A stretch of DNA of 64,000 bases from Ilumatobacteraceae bacterium (GTDB lineage: Bacteria > Actinomycetota > Acidimicrobiia > Acidimicrobiales > Ilumatobacteraceae): assembly GCA_051004915.1 (NCBI GenBank), contig JBPCJW010000142.1, positions 915-64,914 on the forward strand. Direction: 5' to 3'. The notes under the pieces are model-generated. The model was not told where the DNA came from. It did no database searches and saw nothing but the letters and a program-made list of their open reading frames with translations. The translations under genes were made by a program, and so were the position numbers. This document shows positions 37,103-48,441 of this stretch, one piece after another (the first letter of the stretch is position 1; every line of letters begins with the position of its first letter).

Positions 37103-37609
37103 ATGTCCGGAACGACCGACTCGCCAGTGGGCCTGCACCACGTGGCGTACGCCTGCAAGGACGTCGAGGCGACGAACCACTTCTACGAGGACCTGATGGG
37201 CTTCCCACTGGTGCACACCGAGCTGGAGCACTTCGACGGGGGCGGGTACCTGCGCCACGTCTTCTACGACCTCGGCGACGGCACGTGCATCGCCTTCTTC
37301 GACCTCAAGGGCGTCGGCGAGCGGGAGGACTGGTCGAGCGCAGTGTCGGAGGGCAACGGGCTGCCGGTGTGGGTCAACCACATCGCGTTCAAGGCCGACC
37401 AGTCCAAGCAGGACGAGGTGCGGGCGAGGATGACCGCGGCCGGCATCGAGCCGACCATGGACCTCGACCACGGCTGGTGCCAGTCCGTCTACTACCTCGA
37501 CCCCAACGGGATCATGGTCGAGTTCTGCCGTGACACGCCGGGCTTCGAGCCCGACCCCGTCGCCGCCAAGCGCTTGCTCACGGCGACCGAGGCGGTCGCG
37601 CCAGGCTGA
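37103..37609 (+). CDS. VOC family protein (glyoxalase/bleomycin-resistance/dioxygenase fold)
   Basis: ATG 37103 follows GAGAGGGGG. GLHHVAYACKDVEATNHFYEDLMGFPLV and VNHIAFKA...YYLDPNGIMVEF are paired beta-alpha-beta-beta-beta module motifs. Confidence 0.8.
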   Translation: MSGTTDSPVGLHHVAYACKDVEATNHFYEDLMGFPLVHTELEHFDGGGYLRHVFYDLGDGTCIAFFDLKGVGEREDWSSAVSEGNGLPVWVNHIAFKADQSKQDEVRARMTAAGIEPTMDLDHGWCQSVYYLDPNGIMVEFCRDTPGFEPDPVAAKRLLTATEAVAPG

Positions 37610-37618
37610 CGCCGCTCG

Positions 37619-38944
37619 TCAGAGGATGCGGACCGGCAGCTCTCTCGGGCCGCGGATCTGACCGACGCTCCAACGCACCGGGCCGGCCAGCTCGAAGTCG
37701 GGGAAGCGGACGAGGAACTCCTCCACCGCCACCAGCACCTCGAGGCGGGCGAGGTTGGAGCCGAGGCAGCGGTGGATGCCGAGCCCGAACGCGGCGTGGC
37801 GGTTCTCCAGCCGGTCGATGACCACCTCATCGGCCCGGTCGAACAGCGCCGGGTCACGGTTGGCGGCCGGGAACGGCAGCAACACCCACTCGTCGGTCTT
37901 CATCGGGCACCCGTGGAAGTCGTGGTCGTGCGCGACCATCCGGGCCATCGTGACGGGTGCGTACGCCCGCAGCAGCTCCTCGATCGCGGTCGGCATCAGC
38001 TCGGGCTCGGCGACCAGCCGCCGGCGGTCCTGCGGGTTGAGGGCGAGGTGCCAGATGCTCGACCCGATCGCGCTCCAGGTGGTGTCGATGCCGGCGAGGA
38101 GGAGCAGGACGATCGAGCCACGCACGTGCTCGGGACTCAGCTTCTGGCCAGCGAGCTCGACATCGAGGAGGTACGAGATGAGGTCGTCCTGCGGCTCCTG
38201 ACGGTGGCGCTCGATGTGCACGTCGAGGTACGCATCGAGCTGCTCGAAGTTCTTGCGCCGCTCGTCCGGGTGCAGGTTGACGCCCTCCAGCGAGTTGTGG
38301 ACGAACGTCCGGAACTGCTCGTCGTCCTCCACCGGCAGGCCGAGCATGCGGGCGATCACGTTGACCGGGATGTGCTGGGCGTACTGCACGGCCGCATCGA
38401 TGACCGTCTCCCCCGCCGTGATGTCGCCCATGTCGTCGAGGCGCCGGCGACACAGCTTGCGCACCTCGGGCTCCCACGGCTCGATCTGCTTCGGCGCGAA
38501 CGGCGGCAGCAGCAGGCGGCGGGCGAGCTGGTGGAACGGCGGGTCGCTGGTGATCGGCGGTGCCCCGCCGATCGGCGCCACCGCCTCGATCGGCGACGTG
38601 CTGACGACGACCGACCGGCTGGTGAAGTTGTCCGTGTCGTAGGCCACCTCGCGCACCAGCTCGGCGGTCAGCGGCGCCCACATCCCGCCGTACCGGTCGC
38701 TGTGCGCCACCGGGCAGCCGGACGTGCGCAGCTCATCCCAGATCTCGTGGGCCTGCGGGTTGTAGGCCGGGTCGGCGTGGTCGAGATCGGTCGCCCAATC
38801 GGTGACCGGCCCGTAGATGCCCGTCGGCGCGCCGTACCCGGCCTCGCCGGAGTGGCCGTGGTTCTGATCGCCAGTCCCCCTGTCGCCCGTCTTCGCGTCG
38901 CCCATCTTCTGGTCACTGGTGACCGCCTTCTGGTCAAGCGTCAC
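37619..38944 (-). CDS. cytochrome P450
   Basis: I-helix LLLAGIDTT, ExxR (EELLR), and the heme loop FGLGIHRCLGSNLAR. The start is ambiguous: GTG 38944 (1 nt after the ferredoxin stop) or ATG 38905. Confidence 0.92.
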   Translation of the reverse strand: MTLDQKAVTSDQKMGDAKTGDRGTGDQNHGHSGEAGYGAPTGIYGPVTDWATDLDHADPAYNPQAHEIWDELRTSGCPVAHSDRYGGMWAPLTAELVREVAYDTDNFTSRSVVVSTSPIEAVAPIGGAPPITSDPPFHQLARRLLLPPFAPKQIEPWEPEVRKLCRRRLDDMGDITAGETVIDAAVQYAQHIPVNVIARMLGLPVEDDEQFRTFVHNSLEGVNLHPDERRKNFEQLDAYLDVHIERHRQEPQDDLISYLLDVELAGQKLSPEHVRGSIVLLLLAGIDTTWSAIGSSIWHLALNPQDRRRLVAEPELMPTAIEELLRAYAPVTMARMVAHDHDFHGCPMKTDEWVLLPFPAANRDPALFDRADEVVIDRLENRHAAFGLGIHRCLGSNLARLEVLVAVEEFLVRFPDFELAGPVRWSVGQIRGPRELPVRIL

Positions 38945-38945
38945 G

Positions 38946-39149
38946 TCACGCTCCCGTCTCGTCGAGAGTGATGGCGTACTCCGGGCAGTTGGCCACGGCA
39001 AGCCGCGCCTTCTCCTCCAGCTCCGGCGTCACGGTGCCGTCGCCGATGACGACCGCCTGGCCGTAGTCGTCGACGTCGAACAGCTCGGGCGCCAGTGCGT
39101 AGCAGCGATTGTGCCCCTGGCACTTCTCCGCATCGACCCGCACCTGCAT
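38946..39149 (-). CDS. ferredoxin (small single-cluster type, P450 partner)
   Basis: MQVRVDAEKCQGHNRCYALAPELFDVDDYG...AVANCPEYAI. The C..H..C...CP pattern is typical of 3Fe-4S ferredoxins adjacent to actinobacterial P450s. Confidence 0.88.
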   Translation of the reverse strand: MQVRVDAEKCQGHNRCYALAPELFDVDDYGQAVVIGDGTVTPELEEKARLAVANCPEYAITLDETGA

Positions 39150-39213
39150 CCCCCGCAGCGTACGCCGCGCGATCGACAGGTCGACCGCTCGGCCGGTTTC
39201 CTACGATGCACCG

Positions 39214-40302
39214 ATGGCCGACAGTTCGACGGCGTTCCTGCCCGTGGCCACCGACCGGCTGCGCATCCGCACCCTCGTGCCGGCCGACGCCGAGGCGTTC
39301 GCGGCCTATCGGTCCGACCCGGACGTGGCGCGCTACCAGAGCTGGTCGGCGCCATATCCGCTGGCGTCGGCGCGCCAGCTGATCGACGGCCAGCCGCAGC
39401 TCGATGGACCGACCGCCGGCGAGTGGGTGCAGTTGGCCATCGAGGCCGACGGCGTGCTGGTCGGTGACGTCGCCGTCGGGCTCAGCGGCGACGGTCACAC
39501 CGCAACGATCGGGTACACGCTCGTCCCTGCTCACCAGGGCAAGGGTCTGGCCACCGAGGCTGTCGCTGCGGTCGTCGACAGGCTGTTCGAGCACAGCGGC
39601 GTCCACCGTGTGGAGGCTTCCGTCGACCCGCGCAACATCGCCTCCGCTCGCATCGTCGAGCAGGTCGGGTTCGACTTCGAGGGAACGGCCGTGTCGTCGG
39701 TGCTGGCCGACGGGGAGTGGACCGACGACGACCGGTATGCGCTGACCGCTGATGCCCACGAGGCGTGGGGCCAGCGTGTCCGCACGGCAGTCAAGGAGGT
39801 GCACCTGCGCGAGGTCACGGCGGGCAACGCCCGAGCCCTGCTCGCTCTGCGCACCCATCGCACACAGCAGCGCTTCGTTGCCCCAATGGCGGCATCGTTC
39901 GCCAACGCCCTGGCTCCCGAGGTCGTCCATGGCGCGGCCCTGGTGCCGTGGCTGCGCGGCATCGAGGCCGACGGCGAGCTGGTCGGGTTCATGATGATCG
40001 CCGAAGGCACACCGACGTCTCCCGAGCCGCACCTCTGGCGGTTGCTGATCGACCGCCGACATCAGCGGCGGGGCATTGGCAGCGCGGCCCTGCGACTGCT
40101 CTTCGAACGCCTGCGCGCCGAGGGCCACTGGGCGCTGAACGTCAGCTGGGTTCCGGGTCCTGGCGGACCAGCACCCATGTACCTCGCGATGGGGTTCGTC
40201 CCGACCGGCGAGATCGACGAGGACGAGATCGTCGCCCGCCTCGACCTGCAGGGCTCGCACGGCTCGCATGGCTCGCAGGGCTCGCAGGGCTCGCAGGGCT
40301 GA
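39214..40302 (+). CDS. tandem GNAT N-acetyltransferase (two GNAT domains) with a (G-S-H/Q) repeat tail
   Basis: ATG 39214. Domain 1 is RimJ/RimL-like (RLRIRTLVPADAEAF..., HQGKGLATEAV, VDPRNIASARIVEQVGF). Domain 2 has LLIDRRHQRRGIGSAALRLL. The C-terminus is QGSHGSHGSQGSQGSQG. Confidence 0.8.
   Translation: MADSSTAFLPVATDRLRIRTLVPADAEAFAAYRSDPDVARYQSWSAPYPLASARQLIDGQPQLDGPTAGEWVQLAIEADGVLVGDVAVGLSGDGHTATIGYTLVPAHQGKGLATEAVAAVVDRLFEHSGVHRVEASVDPRNIASARIVEQVGFDFEGTAVSSVLADGEWTDDDRYALTADAHEAWGQRVRTAVKEVHLREVTAGNARALLALRTHRTQQRFVAPMAASFANALAPEVVHGAALVPWLRGIEADGELVGFMMIAEGTPTSPEPHLWRLLIDRRHQRRGIGSAALRLLFERLRAEGHWALNVSWVPGPGGPAPMYLAMGFVPTGEIDEDEIVARLDLQGSHGSHGSQGSQGSQG
40252..40299. repeat. 9-bp tandem repeat (ggctcgcaN) x5.3
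   Basis: ggctcgcac ggctcgcat ggctcgcag ggctcgcag ggctcgcag ggc, in frame at the 3' end of the GNAT-GNAT gene. Confidence 0.9.
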
Positions 40303-40310
40303 GGCTGCCC

Positions 40311-42338
40311 GTGGCTGAGGCCGGCCACCGCGCCGTCAACCTGTCCAACTGGGAGAGTCGGGTCGCCCACCACGTCGCGGGCTACGGCATCGACCGGCTC
40401 CTCGCCGACCCCGACGCCCTGTCCGCCGTGGTCGCCTTCGATCAGCCGCGCCTCGGCGACCTCCACGGCCTCGACGTGGTGCACCTGCAGTGCCACATCG
40501 GCACGGACACGATCTCGCTGGCCCGCCTCGGTGGGCGGGTCAGCGGGCTCGACTTCTCACCGTCGGCACTGACCGCGGCGCGCGACGTGGCTGCCCGGGC
40601 CGCCCTCGACGTCGAGTTCGTCGAGTCGGATGTCGACCACGCTGTCGACGCGCTCGGCCCCGAACGGTTCGACCTCGTATACACCGGCATCGGTGCGATC
40701 AACTGGCTGCCGTCGATCGCCCGCTGGGCCGACGTCGTCGTCCGGCTGCTGCGCCCCGGCGGGCGGCTGTTCATGCGCGAGGGCCACCCGATGATGCAGA
40801 CATTGAGCGATCCTCGGCCCGACGGCCTGCTGGTCATCGAGTACCCGTACTTCGAGACGGCGTCCGGCACGACGTTCCGCGAGGTCACGAGCTACGTCGA
40901 CCACGAGGGCGAGCTGGCTCAGCCCGAGACGATCGAGTTCAACCACGGCCTTGGCGAGGTCGTCACCGCGCTCCTCGATTCGGGGATGACGCTGACCCAG
41001 CTGGTCGAACACGACAGCGTCCCGTGGAACTCCCTGGGCGAGGCGATGATCGAGGGGGACGACGAGGAGTGGCGGCTGCTCGGAGGCGCAGAGCGGCTGC
41101 CGCTCTCGTACACGCTGCAGGCCGTGAAGACGCGCGGAGTGGGCGGCTCCGCCGCCATGTCGGTGGGCGGCTCCGCCGCCATGTCGGTGGGCGGCTCCGC
41201 CGCCATGTCGGTGGGCGGCCGACCTGACGACTCGCGCCCGCTGCGGACGGGGCCACAGCGGTCACGGTGGTCCCAATACGTTGGCGCGGTGGAGCTCGGG
41301 GCGGAGGTCGACCGGCGGTACGCGGCCCAGGTCGAGTACGGCGGGCGGGCCCGGGCCGTCCACTCCATCCAGCCCGTGGTCTCGGTCCTGGTCATCACGT
41401 ACCGGCACGCCGCGTTCATCCGCCAATGCCTCGACGGGATCCTCGCCCAGCGGACCGACTTCCCATTCGAGGTGGTCATCGGCGAGGACGGCAGCGACGA
41501 CGGCACCGCAGAGATCTGCGTGGAGTACGCCGACGCCCACCCGGCCACCATCCGTCTGTTCCCACGCGACCGTGCACTCACCCAGCTGCCACTTGACGAG
41601 GGAGCCATCGTCCCGATCAAGCGATTGAACGGCCGATTCACTCGCCTCGCCGCCCGCGCCGACGTGATCGCCTTCTGCGAGGGTGACGACCACTGGACCG
41701 ATCCCGAGAAGTTGCAGCGCCAGTACGACGTGTTGCGGCACGACCCGACCGTGTCGGTCGTCGTCCACGAGGCGGCCGTCGAATGGACGTCGGACGAGCC
41801 GCAACCGTGGCAGTACGCCCACGCCGTGTCGACCCGGTTGTCAACGGAGGACGTGATCTGGGACCCCGGCACTCCGACGTGCACCGTGATGATGCGCAAC
41901 TCCGGACTCGAGGACCCGCGGTTCCTCGAGTGGTCGTGCCGGACGCTCAGCGTCGACTACCTGACACGGGCGGTGGCCAGCTTCTACGGCGACACCTTCG
42001 TCATCGACCGGGAGATGGCGGTCCATCGCAAGCATCCCGGTGGGTTGAGTCAGTCGCCTGCCTACCGCGACCGGTTGCGTCTCGCCGAGAGCACGCGCAA
42101 CCTCTACCTCGGCATCCGTGATCTCAGCCCGCCCGACCGGCGGACGTTGACCAACCCCAAGCTGGCCGGCGTGACGGGGAAGCTGGCGCTCGCCGAGCTG
42201 CGCGCCCACCGGCTCAAGCCAGCCGGGCGTCACGCCGCCGAGGCTGTCGGGTTCGCCCTCGCCGCTCCCGGCGAGCTACTCCGTCAGCGGCGCAGGGTCT
42301 TGCGGCCGCTCGCCGACGCCGTCCGACCCACTGCCTGA
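40311..42338 (+). CDS. fusion protein: class I SAM-dependent methyltransferase (N) + repeat linker + family 2 glycosyltransferase (C)
   Basis: Single uninterrupted frame from GTG 40311. MT motif I: VVHLQCHIGTDTISLARLGGRVSGLDFSP. Linker: (GGSAAMSV)x3. GT2: VSVLVITYRHAAFIRQCLDGILAQ...VVIGEDGSDDGT...FCEGDDHW (DxD-like). The earlier part of track ORF 39765.. overlaps the GNAT gene and was rejected. Confidence 0.8.
   Translation: MAEAGHRAVNLSNWESRVAHHVAGYGIDRLLADPDALSAVVAFDQPRLGDLHGLDVVHLQCHIGTDTISLARLGGRVSGLDFSPSALTAARDVAARAALDVEFVESDVDHAVDALGPERFDLVYTGIGAINWLPSIARWADVVVRLLRPGGRLFMREGHPMMQTLSDPRPDGLLVIEYPYFETASGTTFREVTSYVDHEGELAQPETIEFNHGLGEVVTALLDSGMTLTQLVEHDSVPWNSLGEAMIEGDDEEWRLLGGAERLPLSYTLQAVKTRGVGGSAAMSVGGSAAMSVGGSAAMSVGGRPDDSRPLRTGPQRSRWSQYVGAVELGAEVDRRYAAQVEYGGRARAVHSIQPVVSVLVITYRHAAFIRQCLDGILAQRTDFPFEVVIGEDGSDDGTAEICVEYADAHPATIRLFPRDRALTQLPLDEGAIVPIKRLNGRFTRLAARADVIAFCEGDDHWTDPEKLQRQYDVLRHDPTVSVVVHEAAVEWTSDEPQPWQYAHAVSTRLSTEDVIWDPGTPTCTVMMRNSGLEDPRFLEWSCRTLSVDYLTRAVASFYGDTFVIDREMAVHRKHPGGLSQSPAYRDRLRLAESTRNLYLGIRDLSPPDRRTLTNPKLAGVTGKLALAELRAHRLKPAGRHAAEAVGFALAAPGELLRQRRRVLRPLADAVRPTA
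41139..41219. repeat. perfect 24-bp tandem repeat x3.4 (gtgggcggctccgccgccatgtcg)
   Basis: The three units at 41139-41162, 41163-41186 and 41187-41210 are identical, followed by a partial gtgggcggc. In frame, at the MT/GT2 domain junction. Confidence 0.95.
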
Positions 42339-42417
42339 CGACCGGCCCGCTTCGGCCACCGAGCCACTGACTGACAACCTGACCGCTTCGGCCCCCAACC
42401 GCAGCGCGGAGGCATCA

Positions 42418-43449
42418 TCAGGCCGGCCGTGTCCGGCCCAGCGAGCGGAGCGAGCCACCAGCACGGATCACGTCGATCGATTTGAGGGCGACGATGCCCG
42501 GGTCGATGGCGAACAGGTCGCCATCGACCGTTCGCCCGCCGGCCCACGCCACGTACGCCGCCGGCAGGTCGGCGCCGGCGAGGTGGGCGAACGGGTAGTT
42601 GCCGCCGATCCGCACGTTGAGATCGAGCACGGCCACGTCGTCGCCATGGACGAAGACGTCGACATCGAGTGCGCCGACGTGGCCGAGCTCGTCGGCCAAC
42701 GCACGGCCGGCGGCGTGCAGGCGGGGGGCGTCGACCGTCACGGCGGCGTCGGTCTCCCCCGCTCGCATGGCCAACTTGCGGTGGGCGAGCACGCATTGGA
42801 ACCGACCGGCGAAGTCGTTGACCACCGTCAGCCCGTGCTCGACGCCACGCACACCCTCTTGCACCACCACGTCGTCTGACCCACCCGGTTCGGCCAGGTA
42901 CGTGGAACGCAGGTCACGGTGCACCTTGCGGTGCAGCAGCTCGATCTCGTCGGCCTCGCTCGTCGACCACGTGGCGATCGAACCGGTCCCGCGCCGCGGC
43001 TTCACGAAGACCCGATCCGCTCCGGCCCCGAGCCATCCCGCAGCCTCCGCCGGATCGAGCGTCGTGCGCGGCGCGGTCAAACCCGCCCTGCGCGCGATGT
43101 CGACGGTGGCCAGCTTGTCCTGGCACAGCGCGATGACATCGGGGGCCGACACGGCGACGCGCACGCCGGCCGCCGCAAAACGACTGATGGCGCCGGCGAG
43201 CACCGGCAGCTCGAGGTCGAAGACCGGGACCACGAGAGCGATCTGCTCGCGCCGGCACACATCGAGCAGGAAGTCGATGTAGCCGTCGCTCGCCAGCGGC
43301 GGTGCGACGACCGCCAGGTCGGCGACCACCATGGCCGTCGCCTCGGCTTGGGAGTTGGTGGCGACCACCAACCCCTCTGGTGCCACGGCGTGGCGGAACC
43401 ACTCAACGAGGTACGAGCGCCGACCGGCGCACGTGATCAGCACGTTCAT
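42418..43449 (-). CDS. ATP-grasp domain ligase (carbamoyl-phosphate-synthase/PylC-like)
   Basis: MNVLITCAGRRSYLVEWF (pre-ATP-grasp start typical of this subfamily), VFVKPRRGTGS, VVQEGVRGVEHGL, LDLNVRIGGNYP (Mg/ATP site). Confidence 0.8.
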   Translation of the reverse strand: MNVLITCAGRRSYLVEWFRHAVAPEGLVVATNSQAEATAMVVADLAVVAPPLASDGYIDFLLDVCRREQIALVVPVFDLELPVLAGAISRFAAAGVRVAVSAPDVIALCQDKLATVDIARRAGLTAPRTTLDPAEAAGWLGAGADRVFVKPRRGTGSIATWSTSEADEIELLHRKVHRDLRSTYLAEPGGSDDVVVQEGVRGVEHGLTVVNDFAGRFQCVLAHRKLAMRAGETDAAVTVDAPRLHAAGRALADELGHVGALDVDVFVHGDDVAVLDLNVRIGGNYPFAHLAGADLPAAYVAWAGGRTVDGDLFAIDPGIVALKSIDVIRAGGSLRSLGRTRPA

Positions 43450-43481
43450 GGGATCACCCTGGCGACGATGCGCTCGCTCAT
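43446..43481 (-). CDS. micro-ORF 2 (11 codons, MSERIVARVIP), coding status unproven
   Basis: Its ATG overlaps the stop of micro-ORF 1 (ATGA), and its TGA overlaps the ATG of the ATP-grasp gene (ATGA). Confidence 0.15.
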   Translation of the reverse strand: MSERIVARVIP

Positions 43482-43591
43482 GTCAGCACCTCATCGTGGG
43501 CTGTAGCGCCGAGAAGGAGCGCACCAGGTACTCGGCCATGAGAGACAAGACCGTGCTGCTGATCCACTCGATCGAAGACTCCGTCGTTCAT
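43478..43591 (-). CDS. micro-ORF 1 (37 codons, MNDGVFDRVDQQHGLVSHGRVPGALLLGATAHDEVLT), coding status unproven
   Basis: Its ATG overlaps the aminotransferase stop (ATGA). By hand count, third-position G+C is about 20 of 37 codons, visibly lower than in neighbouring genes. Confidence 0.25.
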   Translation of the reverse strand: MNDGVFDRVDQQHGLVSHGRVPGALLLGATAHDEVLT

Positions 43592-44703
43592 GAGCCAAGA
43601 GCGTCGACGACGATCGAGACAACGAGATCGACCTGCCCGTCGGTCATCGTGTGGAACGAGGGCAGGCACAGGATGCGCGCCGCAACGTCGTCGGCGACCG
43701 CGAGCCGCACCGGCTGCACGTAGTTCAGCTCGTTGAGGCCGGGCGAGAAGTACCGGCGCGGCATGACGTCCCTGGCGACAAGGGCATCGTGGACCTGCTC
43801 GCGATGGCCGGTGTCCTCGAACAGCACGGGCACGTAGGCGCGGTTCGGGTCGGCGCCCTCCCGGTCGGACTGGAACGTCAACCGCCCCTGCCGGCACAGA
43901 CCGTCGAAGCCGGCGGCGTACAGCTCGTAGATCTCGCTGCGGCGAGCGAGCAGGGCGTCCAGGTGCGCCAGGTTGCACAGGCCCATCGCAGCGTGCAGCT
44001 CGGAGCCCTTGGCGTTGATCCCCACCCCGTCGAACCGCGTGAAGTCGACGTGCCCGAAGTTGCGCATCCGCCCCATCGATTCGCGCAGCCCCATCGACTC
44101 AGTGAACAGACCACCACCCTCCACGGTGTGGAACAGCTTGGTGGCGTGGAAGCTGCACGTCGTGACGTCGCCGTAGGAGAAGACCGAACGGCCGCCGTAC
44201 GACGTGGCGAAGCTGTGCGCGCCGTCGTAGATCAAGGCCAACCCGCGCTGCGCGGCGAGCGCGGCGAGCGCGTCGACGTCGCACGGCGTGCCGAAGACGT
44301 GGGTGGCCAAGATGGCAGACGTCCGCGGCGTGATCGCCGCGTCGACGGCCGCCGGGTCGAGCGAGAACGTGCCGGCCTCGATGTCGGCGAACACGGGAGT
44401 GCAGCCCTCCCACACGACTGCGCTCGTGGTCGCGACGTAGGAGAACGGCGTCGTCACCACGTCGCCGGCGACGCCGAGGGCCTTGATCGCCACCTGCAAC
44501 GCGACCGTGCCGTTGGCGACGAACAGCGGGACGGCGACGTCGAGCCGCGCCGCCAGCGCGGCCTCCAGCTCGTGGACCAGCGGCCCGTTGTTGGTCAGCC
44601 AGCAGCGTTCGTAGATGCCGTCCAGGTACGCGTCGTACTCCCGGCGGGGCGGGAGGAACGGCTGCGTGACGGGGATCACGGTGCGCCGCCGTCGACTCGC
44701 CAC
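43588..44703 (-). CDS. DegT/DnrJ/EryC1/StrS-family PLP-dependent (sugar) aminotransferase
   Basis: IPVTQPFLPPRREY, NGTVALQVAIKAL, YDGAHSF, CSFHATKLFHTVEGGG (PLP-Lys motif SFHxxK). Confidence 0.88.
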   Translation of the reverse strand: MASRRRRTVIPVTQPFLPPRREYDAYLDGIYERCWLTNNGPLVHELEAALAARLDVAVPLFVANGTVALQVAIKALGVAGDVVTTPFSYVATTSAVVWEGCTPVFADIEAGTFSLDPAAVDAAITPRTSAILATHVFGTPCDVDALAALAAQRGLALIYDGAHSFATSYGGRSVFSYGDVTTCSFHATKLFHTVEGGGLFTESMGLRESMGRMRNFGHVDFTRFDGVGINAKGSELHAAMGLCNLAHLDALLARRSEIYELYAAGFDGLCRQGRLTFQSDREGADPNRAYVPVLFEDTGHREQVHDALVARDVMPRRYFSPGLNELNYVQPVRLAVADDVAARILCLPSFHTMTDGQVDLVVSIVVDALGS

Positions 44704-44730
44704 TGGTGCTGGCCGACGGTGGTCGCCACG

Positions 44731-45909
44731 TCACATGCTCGGGATCTGGCGGGTGTCCACGACGAGCGGCGTCTTGTTCGTCGTCGGGCTGGTCACCAGC
44801 TCGTGCACCGTGACGAAGCGGACATCCCGTTCGACGGGTCCACCGGCGAGCACGTCGGTCAGGGCCTGGCGCTTCACATCCAGGTCGCCGGGCGCTGGGG
44901 CATCCGCCGGGACGACGAGCACGTCGACGCGGGTGCGTCGCTCGGCGTTCAGCGAGAGCTGGATCTGGAATGCCGTTGCACCGTCGACGACAGGGGCGAA
45001 GTCGCGCTCCGTCATCGACCGATGGTCGACGCGAAACGTGTATGCGCCGCGACCCTGCAGCTCGACGCACGGCTGGCCGTCCACCGTGACGAGGCGACCG
45101 CGATCACCGTTGCGGTAGCGCAGCACGGGAAACCGACGTTTGATCGTGTTGGTCACGACGATGTTGCCGATGCCGTCAGCGTCCGGGTCCTCGATCTCGA
45201 TGTGCACGATCTCGTGGACGATCCGGTACTGCGCCCCGTCCCGGCTGAGATCGCACCATCCCCACGAGCCGTTCTCCACGGATGCGTACACGCCGTAGAC
45301 CTGCTCGACGCCGAGTGCGCGGCGCAGCTCGTCCAGGTAGTCGGACGACATGACCTCGCCGCCGAAGGCGAGGCGCGGGATGCGCACGTCGAGTCCGTTG
45401 GCGCTGACGTAGGCGGCGAACTGGAACAGTCGCGACGGCGTGCCGACCGCCATGTCGGGCCCGAGGCGACGGCAGAAGTTGACGACGAACTCGTCCGGTG
45501 TGATCGCGCCGAGCCCGATCGACGTGGCGTCGCAGCGCTCCAGCAGGTCGTCGAAGATCGACGCCGACCGGTAGAGGTGCTTGTAGTTGAAGAGGTTGAC
45601 GGCGACCGTCGTCGGCGTGAAGATCCCGGCCGCCAGCAGGTGGTCGGCCATCGCCTGGCGCTGGCGGCGGTTCTCGTCGATGCCGAGCGGCACGAGCAAC
45701 GCCTCCGACAACGTGCCACCGGTACGCAGCAGGTACACGCCGGTCTGCTCGCGGCGCAGGTCGAAGTTGCGTTCGATCAGTGAGCGCAGCTCGGCCCGGC
45801 CGATGATCGGCACGTCGGCGAATTGCTCACACCCGTCGACGTGACCGGCGAGGAACGGTGACGAACGAACCTCGTGGAACAGCCACTCCAGCTCCTCCGG
45901 CGTGCTCAC
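44731..45909 (-). CDS. PaaK/CapK-like adenylate-forming enzyme (F390-synthetase family)
   Basis: 392 aa. LLRTGGTLSEA (degenerate TSGTTG P-loop), GGEVMSSDYLDELRR, VLRYRNGDRG (Y.TGD-type motif). GTG 45909 follows GAGGGTGG. The family call is from motif and size resemblance. Confidence 0.6.
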   Translation of the reverse strand: MSTPEELEWLFHEVRSSPFLAGHVDGCEQFADVPIIGRAELRSLIERNFDLRREQTGVYLLRTGGTLSEALLVPLGIDENRRQRQAMADHLLAAGIFTPTTVAVNLFNYKHLYRSASIFDDLLERCDATSIGLGAITPDEFVVNFCRRLGPDMAVGTPSRLFQFAAYVSANGLDVRIPRLAFGGEVMSSDYLDELRRALGVEQVYGVYASVENGSWGWCDLSRDGAQYRIVHEIVHIEIEDPDADGIGNIVVTNTIKRRFPVLRYRNGDRGRLVTVDGQPCVELQGRGAYTFRVDHRSMTERDFAPVVDGATAFQIQLSLNAERRTRVDVLVVPADAPAPGDLDVKRQALTDVLAGGPVERDVRFVTVHELVTSPTTNKTPLVVDTRQIPSM

Positions 45910-45970
45910 GGACCACCACCCTCAGGCCCCCGCCCCCGCCCATCCTGAGGCCCCGGCCGCCGCCCACCCG

Positions 45971-46077
45971 GCGCGATGAGGGATGAGTGGTCATACGACG
46001 CACATCGCTCATCGCTGGGCCGGGCTCCCGAGGGCGATGAGCGATGTGCGGCCAGACGGCACTCATCGCTCATCGCG
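45971..46077. repeat. structured palindromic repeat, family 1, copy 2
   Basis: Same architecture as 2231..2336. The outer arms are gcgcgatgagggatgagtgg and cactcatcgctcatcgcg. The inner perfect 10-bp stem, cgctcatcgc (46006-46015) with gcgatgagcg (46034-46043), again encloses an 18-nt loop, but the loop sequence differs. Confidence 0.9.
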
Positions 46078-46092
46078 TGGTGCGCTCACGGC

Positions 46093-47367
46093 TCATCGCG
46101 CTGGTTCGGTGGCGATCATCGTCGGGACCAGGACGGCGCGATCGCCGGCGACGTTGATCACCGACTCCGCCGACGCCCGGAACAGGCCGGGCCCGAAGGG
46201 CACCCCGTCGAAGCCGGGCAGCAGTCCGACGACATGCGCTGGCTGTTCGACCAGCTCGCCTGCATCCGTGAGCATCGGCATCGGCACGACGAGCTGTGGG
46301 ACGAACGCCTGCGCCGCCCGGTCGTCCGACTCGTGCTCGACGGCGTGGAGCCAGGTCGGCGGATCGCACGCCGCGCCGACCAGCAGGTCGATCCCCCGGC
46401 CCGAGCTGTTGCGCTTGAGCACCCAGTCAGCGGGCTCGGCGCGCAGCCGATCGGCGATCGAGGGGTCGCCGGCGTGGAACGTCGGGATGATGTGGTCCGA
46501 CAACACGTCGACCGAGGCGGGGTCGAGCAGGTCGGACATGATCGAGCGATCCCCCAGGACGGCGAGCATGCGCTTGTCGTGGCCGAGGATCAAGGTCCGC
46601 ACGTCGTTGAACGTGCGGTCGCAGGCCACAAGGGCCGCGAACAGATCGGGCGGCATCTCGAGCAGCTCGTCTCGCTCCAGCTCGAGGATGAACTGGGCGA
46701 CCGGCTCGCTCCCGTCGACGATCACGCCACGCTCGACGCGCAGCTGGTCCGGCCGGCGAGCTCGGGCGTCGATGCCGACACGGCGCAACTCGTCGACGAG
46801 GAGGAAGATCTCGTTGCCGCCCTCCCGGTCGAGGAGGACCACGAGCGGCCCCGGCTCGAAGCGCGACGCAAGGGCATCGATCGCCTGCCGCAGACCCACC
46901 ACGGCCCGCACCGCGGCACCGGTCAGGTAGCCAAGACCTTCGACCACTTCGTTGGTGTAGTAGCTGCACAGGAACCCGTTCGTGGGGAACCGGGCGTTGA
47001 CCTCGCAGACCTGGGCGACGCCGTCGACGTCGATCAGGAAGTCCGGGCGCAGCGCGCCGGTGCGATACGGGAGGCCATCGACTCGCTCGAGTAGCTCGAC
47101 GAGGGGGCCAGGCAGGGCCAGCACCCGGCGCAGCCGGCCGTCGGAGAGGTACCGCGCGATGACCCGCTCGATGCCGACGGCGATGGCGCGGTACAGACGG
47201 TCGAGGAGGGCGGCGTCGGGCGCGCCGAGGGTCAGCGGATACGGCGCGGTGCGATCGGCGTACCACCCCATCGACGGTGCGACCGAGCGCACCGCCTTGT
47301 CCAGCTCGGCCCGATCACGGCGGAAAGTGGCTGCGTCCGGCGGCCACACCGGCACCGTCGGGCGCAT
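46093..47367 (-). CDS. hypothetical ligase, possibly ATP-grasp / glutathionylspermidine-synthase-like
   Basis: ATG 47367 lies 7 nt after the upstream stop. RPDFLIDVDGVAQVCEVNARFPTNGF and WVLKRNSSGRGIDLLVG resemble nucleotide-binding strands of GspS-like or circularly permuted ATP-grasp enzymes. Coding confidence is high, function confidence low. Confidence 0.45.
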   Translation of the reverse strand: MRPTVPVWPPDAATFRRDRAELDKAVRSVAPSMGWYADRTAPYPLTLGAPDAALLDRLYRAIAVGIERVIARYLSDGRLRRVLALPGPLVELLERVDGLPYRTGALRPDFLIDVDGVAQVCEVNARFPTNGFLCSYYTNEVVEGLGYLTGAAVRAVVGLRQAIDALASRFEPGPLVVLLDREGGNEIFLLVDELRRVGIDARARRPDQLRVERGVIVDGSEPVAQFILELERDELLEMPPDLFAALVACDRTFNDVRTLILGHDKRMLAVLGDRSIMSDLLDPASVDVLSDHIIPTFHAGDPSIADRLRAEPADWVLKRNSSGRGIDLLVGAACDPPTWLHAVEHESDDRAAQAFVPQLVVPMPMLTDAGELVEQPAHVVGLLPGFDGVPFGPGLFRASAESVINVAGDRAVLVPTMIATEPAR

Positions 47368-47374
47368 CGGGGCG

Positions 47375-48226
47375 TTACACCATCTGGACGGCGCGGGCAC
47401 CGAGACCGGCGCGATCGAGCTGGTCGACGATCGACTGCATGGCGGCCGTCTTGTGCTCGAGGTAGGTCGCCACGGTGGAGCGCACGGCGCCGGCATCGAG
47501 TGTTCGGCCGGCACCGACGAGGTACGCCTCGATGGCGTCGACGGCATGACGGAAGTGATCCAGCTCGGTGCCGTCGCAGTGCACCTCGATCCACAGCAGT
47601 GCCCTGCGCCGATCGACATCGGACCAGCCACGCGCGATCAACCAGTCGTTGAACAGTGGCCGCAGCAGCTCGACCTCGGCGTGGGTGTAGATCTCGTGGA
47701 CGACCGTGGCCAGGATGCCGGTCAACAGGTCGTCCTCGACCAGGTTGCAACGGTCCTTCCACTGCTTGAACGCGGCCGCCTCCGGCGTGAGGTAGCGCTT
47801 CGATTGCCACTCGTCGCCGCCGCTCAGCGTGGTCGCCATCGCATAGAAGAGGTCGGCGTGCAGCAGGCCGTTGCCGACGCCGAGGTCCTCGTCGCAGATC
47901 CGGTGCAGGCTGACGAGCGAGCGGACCAGTGCGGCGGGGTCAGCCACTGCGCCGTCACGTAGCTGCAGAGTGATCCGGTTGCCGAGCCCGGACACGCACA
48001 TCGCGCTGTGGTTGGTCATGCTCCACGAACGGAAGTACCAGCGCAGGCCCTCGTCACCCGGCGACAGCTCGATGACCTGGCGGAACGCGTCCTCGATCGT
48101 CTCCAGCGAGTGGTGCGCCGACGGCGTCGAGATGGCGTCGGTCAGCGCGCGGCGCAAAACAGCGTCAACGACGTCATCCAGCTCGACGCTGATGAGCTGC
48201 TGCAACTGAGGTTCCACCGTCCGCAT
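47375..48226 (-). CDS. hypothetical protein, possibly a heme-oxygenase-like (TenA/PqqC/HDO fold) iron enzyme
   Basis: 283 aa and predicted all-helical by composition. Candidate metal ligand motifs are VVHEIYTHAEVE and EVHCDGTELDHFRH (H-x4-E-x2-H, close to the H-x3-D-x2-H of HDO/CADD-type proteins). Function is speculative. Confidence 0.4.
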   Translation of the reverse strand: MRTVEPQLQQLISVELDDVVDAVLRRALTDAISTPSAHHSLETIEDAFRQVIELSPGDEGLRWYFRSWSMTNHSAMCVSGLGNRITLQLRDGAVADPAALVRSLVSLHRICDEDLGVGNGLLHADLFYAMATTLSGGDEWQSKRYLTPEAAAFKQWKDRCNLVEDDLLTGILATVVHEIYTHAEVELLRPLFNDWLIARGWSDVDRRRALLWIEVHCDGTELDHFRHAVDAIEAYLVGAGRTLDAGAVRSTVATYLEHKTAAMQSIVDQLDRAGLGARAVQMV

Positions 48227-48441
48227 GCTGTCCTTTCGAGTTTTGGTCTGGCCGTTCGGAGCTCTTGGCGAGGTGCCGCCTCTCCGGCCGCGCTGGTCAG
48301 CTCGCTCGATCGATCGGGTTGTCTACCACAATCGAACGGCGAAACGGTGGAACCCCAGGTCAGCTTCGTCCCTCCCGTTGGAGCGCAGCCCGGCGGCGCC
48401 GGCGTGGCTGTCTCGGGGTCCGTCTCCGCGAGGATCGGGTC

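Follow-up and report, generated by a model that had tools for sequence, protein, structure and literature searches.

Mycobacterial interspersed repetitive units (MIRUs), which reportedly go back to Supply and colleagues in 1997, are used worldwide for typing Mycobacterium tuberculosis, and we know of no explanation to date for how they have spread. These elements are 40-100 bp long, occur in 40-50 copies per genome and lie in the spacers of polycistronic operons, with which they are co-transcribed; the ends of their open reading frames (ORFs) overlap the adjacent genes, and filled sites carry tetranucleotide direct repeats (PMC3184786). Tandem arrays close with a shorter unit, such as the 77 + 77 + 53 bp array in the senX3-regX3 spacer, and MIRUs are reportedly confined to M. 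leprae and the M. tuberculosis complex (PMC4213456). According to a review, they seem to be mobile, with coupled ORFs that probably soften the effect of an insertion (PMC12548453). Here, we analyzed a 64,000-nt stretch of actinobacterial DNA (the window), in which the spacer between a DegT/DnrJ/EryC1-type aminotransferase gene (hereafter DegT) and an ATP-grasp gene holds a short repeat of comparable architecture.

This 138-nt spacer appears to hold two members of an intergenic repeat family with dispersed copies, namely one full unit of 110 nt and one truncated unit of 32 nt; the host of the family is an uncultivated high-GC actinobacterial lineage with metagenome-assembled genomes (MAGs) of Ilumatobacteraceae as its nearest named relatives. 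A first-pass annotation of the window had noted that a 37-codon ORF (ORF1) and an 11-codon ORF (ORF2) on the minus strand tile the spacer exactly, and that the junctions DegT/ORF1, ORF1/ORF2 and ORF2/ATP-grasp are all ATGA stop/start overlaps; both observations were confirmed. What matters most, and what a reading of the window alone could not reveal, is that an intergenic repeat with many copies is involved, of which the spacer is one. We consider it quite probable that a MIRU-like junction repeat was inserted here at an ancestral ATGA, plausibly preserving translational coupling.

Like MIRUs, the 110-nt units are short repeats in operon spacers (PMC12548453, PMC3184786, PMC4213456), possess small ORFs that overlap the adjacent genes at -4 spacing, form tandem arrays with a truncated end (77 + 77 + 53 bp in MIRUs; 110 + 110 or 110 + ~30 nt here) and, to go by depth ratios, probably occur in many copies, with filled and empty sites and short direct repeats. 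Unlike MIRUs, they belong to an Acidimicrobiia-like lineage and not to Mycobacterium, have a unit of 110 nt, carry an invariant Shine-Dalgarno (SD)-like GAGG before the terminal ATG, and come in several unit types sharing the start NTGAGCGAG. The likeness draws on published descriptions of architecture. Our literature searches revealed no equivalent elements described outside mycobacteria, and the repeat family appears to be undescribed.

Copies of the 110-nt unit and their architecture

Contigs of eight public metagenome runs (X1-X4, X5, X7, X10 and X25) were aligned on the region. Over positions 43473-43592, word depth was 180-1600 in the seven DNA or unlabelled runs, compared with 4-23 in the flanks, and this 120-nt core was 30-100 times as deep as its flanks. 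The extra depth originated from dozens of short contigs that carried 3-15 mismatches and continued into unrelated sequence on both sides. In the remaining run, X25, which is labelled as metagenomic RNA-Seq, depth reached ~28 over the same positions and 2-4 in the flanks; these contigs hint at transcription of repeat copies, with DNA carry-over also possible.

A scan of the metagenome contigs with a pattern derived from the core returned five contigs (L008-L012). L012 is an independent assembly of the window's own locus (99.7% identity), and the site is filled there as well, which shows that the insert did not arise by misassembly. The other four contigs and L013 carry the unit, at 80-90% identity, in five unrelated operons (Table 1). 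When the unit-ORF peptide was searched against 5.8 billion proteins, the single called match, a protein of 37 aa, lay on the L013 contig, where a partial second unit was also detected (E=8e-6). A nucleotide profile of the unit (nhmmer) identified exactly one copy in the window. The unit had no match in plasmid and phage collections or among viral contigs, and a search of genome contigs with the ATP-grasp protein yielded only one distant, unrelated locus.

The consensus unit, in sense orientation, is ATGA GCGAGGGAGTCTTCGACCGAGTGGATCAGCAGCACGGTCTTGTCGCTCATGGCCGAGTACCTGTTGCGCTCCTTCCTGGCGTCACCGCCCACGGTGAGGTTCTTAC ATGA. It was co-oriented with the flanking genes in all six contexts and, in the four contexts that show the genes on both sides (the window, L009, L011 and L013), was located between co-directional operon genes. 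In five of the six contexts the upstream TGA overlaps the ATG or GTG of the unit (NTGA), the start lying 9 nt away in L011. A full relay was observed in L009, where the stop of the YCII-domain gene (GTGA) is followed by unit 1, ATGA, unit 2, ATGA and the sigma factor start. The downstream ATGA falls on the start of the next gene directly in L009, and in the window via the tail ORF. TGAGGT, 7-8 nt ahead of the terminal ATG, is invariant (6/6 units); therefore, each unit ends with a plausible ribosome-binding site and a start codon. The 37-codon ORF is kept in five of the six full units. In L011 a 1-nt insertion breaks the peptide, and the ORF still closes on an internal ATGA.

Tandem arrays were found in L009 (two units) and in L013 and the window (one unit plus a truncated unit each), and loose contig ends showed tandem joints. 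The ORF2 region of the window begins with GAGCGAGCG like a new unit, and both the truncated second unit in L013 and loose ends of other copies are similar to it; it is probably a truncated or degenerate further unit. The repeat search grouped the junctions of the window into one direct-repeat family (D1) with spacings of 110 and 32 nt, the two copies of the 8-mer CATGAACG being separated by 142 nt. When random 134-nt pieces of the genome were placed between two copies of this 8-mer, a complete NTGA relay arose in 12.5% of cases, or 3.9% if only ATG starts were accepted. The relay alone is only weakly beyond chance; the recurrence of the same unit with the same architecture at unrelated loci is far beyond it.

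Terminal inverted repeats were not found in the unit, the repeat search giving only internal inverted repeats of 8-13 nt. Several other bacterial repeats, namely miniature inverted-repeat transposable elements (MITEs), Correia elements, Rickettsia palindromic elements and repetitive extragenic palindromes with their mosaic elements (REP/BIME), are similarly non-coding-sized, multi-copy and, as they cause little damage, tolerated inside transcription units, and those of Rickettsia insert in frame within genes. Unlike MITEs and these related repeats, the 110-nt unit has neither terminal inverted repeats nor a stable palindrome, and it is found strictly in sense orientation and strictly at stop/start codons.

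Table 1. Features of the DegT/ATP-grasp spacer in the window and further contexts of the repeat unit
Feature	Position in window	Strand	Basis or remark
DegT/DnrJ/EryC1-type aminotransferase gene	43588..44703	-	Pfam PF01041, E=1.2e-80
ATP-grasp gene	42418..43449	-	PylC-like N-terminal domain PF21360 (5e-21) and ATP-grasp_3 PF02655
ORF1, 37 codons; full 110-nt repeat unit plus closing ATGA	43478..43591	-	MNDGVFDRVDQQHGLVSHGRVPGALLLGATAHDEVLT and stop; unit-profile nhmmer E=8.5e-36
ORF2, 11 codons	43446..43481	-	MSERIVARVIP and stop; 32-nt tail beginning GAGCGAGCG
Junction 1, CATGAACG; DegT stop and ORF1 start	43585..43592	-	Direct-repeat copy 1, 8 nt
Junction 2, CATGAGCG; ORF1 stop and ORF2 start	43475..43482	-	Same as the unit-to-unit boundary of the family
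Junction 3, CATGAACG; ORF2 stop and ATP-grasp start	43443..43450	-	Direct-repeat copy 2
Nearly invariant 5' part of the unit, GGAGTCTTCGAYCGAGTGRATCAGCAGCACGGTCTT	43547..43582	-	Six-unit alignment; metagenome variants
SD-like GAGGTG, 5 nt ahead of the junction 2 ATG	43487..43492	-	Within the invariant TGAGGT block (alignment columns 101-106)
GGTGATCC, possible Shine-Dalgarno site	43451..43458	-	Ends 1 nt before the ATP-grasp ATG; putative function
L008: unit after rpsP			Upstream gene only; contig ends
L009: two tandem units between a YCII-domain gene and an extracytoplasmic function (ECF) sigma factor gene			Tandem Repeats Finder (TRF) period 110, score 398, 96% matches
L010: unit after a PIG-L family gene			Upstream gene only; contig ends
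L011: unit before a helicase gene			Both neighbours visible
L013: unit and truncated unit in a tad pilus locus			Order: TadC-like gene, repeat, small unidentified ORF, TadE-like gene

Empty sites in orthologous loci

A comparison with related genomes had been proposed in the first-pass annotation as a check on the small ORFs. In the loci compared here, the orthologous spacers lack both ORFs, the spacer sequence of the window being present in none of the seven orthologous DegT/ATP-grasp loci. The DegT stop and the ATP-grasp start overlap directly by 4 nt in L002, L006 and the JGI contig of P0005, and L003 has a GTGA overlap too, once a frameshifted gene call is corrected. In that locus (L003 4914-5948) the called DegT C-terminus is scrambled and a normal C-terminus is encoded downstream in another frame, so that the apparent spacer there most likely stems from a single-base error of assembly. 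The two genes are separated by 7 nt in L004 and L005 and by 78 nt in L007. The last residue of DegT is homologous in all orthologous loci, and the first residues of the ATP-grasp protein are MNVL or VNVL.

Within the window, the alignment of DegT with its orthologues reaches the last residue, and the TGA that closes the gene (43590-43588) shares bases with the first ATG of the repeat. The orthologues of the ATP-grasp protein show 61-70% identity, the closest named relatives being from Ilumatobacteraceae MAGs (68-70%). Empty sites were also observed in the metagenomes, where two contigs of X2 and one of X7 skip the insert. Because they carry the same 8-mer, CATGAACG, junctions 1 and 3 look like a single ancestral ATGA overlap, present today on either side of the insert. 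In support of this, the second codon is AAC both in the unit of the window and in the ATP-grasp gene, and AGC, AGT or AGG in other units. The 8-nt direct repeat differs by one base from the family's own 5' end, CATGAGCG.

Two further origins were considered and dismissed. For a recent tandem duplication of flanking coding sequence, blastn and tblastx found the spacer unlike the DegT 3' end and the ATP-grasp 5' end. For a selenocysteine-containing or read-through fusion of DegT and ATP-grasp (which are in the same frame, with two TGAs between them), four of the six units have a further TGA in frame, and the orthologues stop DegT at the same residue.

It might also be thought that a decayed gene left the spacer behind, as the first-pass annotation had suggested among other options, or that it is filler from a one-off local rearrangement or an assembly error. 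The composition of the spacer gives this some ground. As had been noted, it is poorer in GC than its surroundings (about 0.62, versus 0.70 for the window). GC at codon positions 1/2/3 is 0.82/0.39/0.53 in ORF1 and 0.68/0.48/0.93 in DegT, and position-3 values of the flanking genes are 0.88-0.93. The spacer shows three-base periodicity, with G or C at 36 of 46 positions in one phase versus 24 and 25 in the other two. An antisense frame (43466-43597, plus strand) is open in five of six units, e.g. NLTVGGDAEKERNRYSAMSDKTVLLIHSVEDSLAH, with GC at third codon positions typical of the genome, and the unit may descend from a coding sequence. The wobble position of this frame is, however, the least variable one. 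On the other hand, the same 110-nt unit is found at unrelated loci, and the orthologues have a direct stop/start overlap with no gene at the position of the spacer. Searches of all six spacer frames against Pfam, with E up to 10, gave no match; the antisense peptide was unmatched among 5.8 billion proteins, and no parent protein was found for it. The filled site is backed by L012 and by contigs of several other runs. A decayed gene or local filler is therefore rejected as very improbable. The antisense segment KTVLLIHSIEDS had been considered as a fragment of an ABC ATPase; this candidate was dropped as it had no Pfam support.

Coding potential, conservation and a possible translational relay

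The first-pass annotation had taken ORF1 to be either free of ordinary coding selection or an atypical small gene, and the copies of the unit speak for the former. In the frame of the ORF, variable sites number 8, 12 and 13 at codon positions 1, 2 and 3, of 36 sites each, as expected of a sequence free from constraint. T is the last base of 31-40% of codons in the unit ORFs versus 5-8% in the flanking genes. Because changes are spread evenly over the codon positions and T-ending codons are in excess, the peptide is not under coding selection. Of 35 codons in each of the five intact units, 29-32 begin with G or C and no more than 1-2 with T; with G or C at nearly every first position, the frame can hardly acquire a stop codon. 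This phase of G and C also holds the antisense frame open and accounts for its third-position GC.

These results bear on the idea that ORF1 encodes a functional micro-protein, for example a peptide substrate of the neighbouring ATP-grasp ligase similar to those of graspetides or pheganomycin. Precursors of graspetides and the PGM1 substrates of pheganomycin biosynthesis are likewise small ORFs beside an ATP-grasp gene, and such a gene does adjoin the ORFs in the window. In addition, the frame is open in five of the six full units, and the N-terminal half of the peptide (GVFDRV.QQHGL) is conserved. However, an ATP-grasp gene is present in none of the five other contexts of the unit, and the unit in none of the seven orthologous DegT/ATP-grasp pairs. 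The differences between copies show no constraint at the protein level, codon usage is alien to the genome and L011 is frameshifted, and only one similar protein had been called among the 5.8 billion. Unlike the precursors of such ribosomally synthesized and post-translationally modified peptides (RiPPs), ORF1 has no core motif, conserved enzyme link or coding constraint; the lack of a core with Ser/Thr plus Asp/Glu/Lys had already been pointed out and was confirmed. The enzyme is also of a different type, a PylC-like ATP-grasp protein in a sugar-type cluster. A functional micro-protein has very little probability in our judgement, and we reject a substrate peptide of the ATP-grasp enzyme.

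Conservation of the unit follows a different pattern at the nucleotide level. Its first ~46 nt are almost invariant and the 3' half is variable, both in the alignment and in the tables of metagenome variants; between 43547 and 43592, no variant reached at least 10% of depth in the eight runs. One explanation is that the unit is mainly cis-regulatory, with a protein or small RNA binding the 46-nt 5' half and thereby controlling translation or mRNA stability of the downstream gene at many operons, the ORF and the ATGA ends being secondary. Besides this near-invariance across loci and runs, the unit invariably has the sense orientation and would thus be included in the operon transcript, provided that its neighbours are co-transcribed, contigs matching the unit are present in the RNA-Seq-labelled run, and promoter activity has been reported for the MIRUs of the senX3-regX3 spacer (PMC4213456). 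Against it, the host operons share no function, and orthologous operons manage without the unit. In addition, Rfam, with permissive filters, returned Ms_AS-8 as the best hit at 18 bits (gathering score 48, E=0.47), the spacer RNA folded no better than shuffled sequences (z = -0.44) and formed no stable palindrome, RNAalifold on the six units gave no net covariation support, and a scan of the spacer found neither a sigma-70-like promoter nor a terminator. We regard a mainly cis-regulatory unit as unlikely, less so than the micro-protein or the decayed gene.

Among the three options of the first-pass annotation, a translational-coupling relay comes closest: the overlaps and the SD-like motif on which it would depend are conserved in the element family, and translation of the ORFs is predicted from them. 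In the scenario that we favor, a repeat unit would have entered the ancestral ATGA overlap of the DegT and ATP-grasp genes, leaving CATGAACG on both sides. It would now be part of a shared DegT/ATP-grasp transcript, presumably so because the flanking genes are co-oriented and have orthologues with a 4-nt overlap. After termination at the DegT TGA, a ribosome may restart at the overlapping ATG (43591), read 37 codons, stop at the TGA at 43480-43478 and restart at 43481, aided by the GAGGTG at 43492-43487. It would then read 11 codons and stop on the ATP-grasp ATG. This ATG is also preceded by GGTGATCC, which we take to be complementary to the usual bacterial 16S 3' end. The unit end (SD-like GAGG, 7-8 nt, ATGA) could hand ribosomes over to the next unit or gene, so that insertion would do little harm to the expression of the downstream gene and the peptides would be by-products. 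Upstream short ORFs that deliver ribosomes, and bicistronic designs for translational coupling, similarly serve no other purpose than to end on the next start with a 4-nt ATGA overlap (PMC12548453); unlike them, the short ORF here is carried by a multi-locus repeat, and up to three hand-overs are chained.

Several points weigh against an inserted repeat that preserves coupling. Translation of the ORFs, coupling and the mode of spread are all matters that we infer from sequence, and insertion itself is deduced from filled versus empty sites. The ATP-grasp gene's own SD-like site may make the relay dispensable. The ORF of the truncated unit in L013 misses the start of the next gene, showing that downstream hand-over is not universal, and the near-invariance of the 5' 46 nt is not explained by coupling. 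No copy of the unit was found in about 70 kb of relatives' loci, either with the nhmmer profile or by blastn and tblastx of the spacer against L001-L007, and copy number per genome is known only from depth ratios in mixed communities. Finally, the direct repeat may partly reflect similarity to the 5' end of the family and not a target duplication.

Related repeats, neighbouring genes and implications

Relatives were searched for related repeats with the string TGAGCGAG, and other repeats beginning with NTGAGCGAG were found at the same or neighbouring junctions. In L006 (1910-2254), five perfect or near-perfect tandem 68-nt units (GTGAGCGAGCGTCCAAGGTGATG...GTGCTGCA), chained by GTGA, span from the stop of an upstream 420-aa gene to the GTG of the homologue of the 392-aa gene in the window, the last unit being in frame with the downstream gene. 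A faint AnkG_N match was seen in the product of this 420-aa gene. The same 420-aa/392-aa junction contains modules of 66, 21 and 20 nt in L002 (2135-2245) and of 21 and 17 nt in L003 (3632-3672), all bounded by GTGA or ATGA, and a plain ATGA overlap in L004 (3685). At the DegT/ATP-grasp junction, L007 (3011-3088) has a different repeat of 78 nt, starting with GTGAGCGAGG exactly at the junction and reading in frame into the ATP-grasp gene, to which the gene caller had added an N-terminal extension. L005 (2519-2528) has only 7 nt there, GCGAGCC, perhaps as a footprint or target motif. Similarity was also seen between the tail of the spacer in the window (GAGCGAGCG...CCAGGGTGATCC) and the 5' part of the 68-nt L006 unit (GAGCGAGCGTCCAAGGTGATGTCC). 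Thus, given the repeats in L002, L003, L006 and L007, the junctions of this clade are repeatedly occupied by modular NTGA-bounded repeats.

A wider reading, which we offer tentatively and think less likely to be right than wrong, is that the 110-nt, 68-nt and 78-nt units and the 17-21-nt modules belong to one modular superfamily of mobile elements in Acidimicrobiia that starts with NTGAGCGAG and homes to stop/start overlaps. Coupling would be rebuilt by the element's own SD and ATG, and the 46-nt 5' half would be recognized by a trans-acting factor, either a mobilising enzyme or a global translational regulator.

The gene neighbourhood of the spacer is conserved between the window (37600-48300) and L002-L006, with genes of 281, 420 and 392 aa, DegT and ATP-grasp on one strand; the 392-aa gene has no Pfam match. 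On the other strand, L002 and L003 encode a family 2 glycosyltransferase, a methyltransferase and a GNAT acetyltransferase, and the next gene, back on the first strand, is for a ferredoxin; L004 keeps only the glycosyltransferase gene of the other-strand set. A cytochrome P450 (P450) gene follows the ferredoxin gene in L002, and a P450 ORF is located at 37619-39001 in the window. The neighbourhood looks like a cluster for a modified sugar or small molecule. Between the 392-aa gene and DegT, a gene of ~498 aa is found in L002 (3420-4916), L005 (1-1436) and L007 (430-1929), its product in L002 having a weak HTTM-domain match; the window (44703-44731) and L004 do not have it, and the gap from the 392-aa gene to DegT is 27-29 nt. 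Elsewhere in the window, a short CCTGA/CCTGG-type pentanucleotide run (ACCTGACCTGGCCTGACCTGACCTGACC) was met at about 1865-1890 on the minus strand in a search for CTGACNTGA.

The 110-nt family would represent a second repeat family with MIRU architecture, in a distant actinobacterial class; it comes in several types of unit, its SD-like motif does not vary, and its empty sites are clean. It offers comparative material on whether such repeats target stop/start overlaps and whether the passing on of ribosomes is what makes them tolerable. If the wider superfamily were true, the MIRU principle would have a second, independent example, with clear filled and empty sites from which the spread of such elements could be worked out. 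For genome annotation, chained ATGA-overlapping micro-ORFs in high-GC genomes can mark a repeat of this kind and should not be taken as RiPP precursors.

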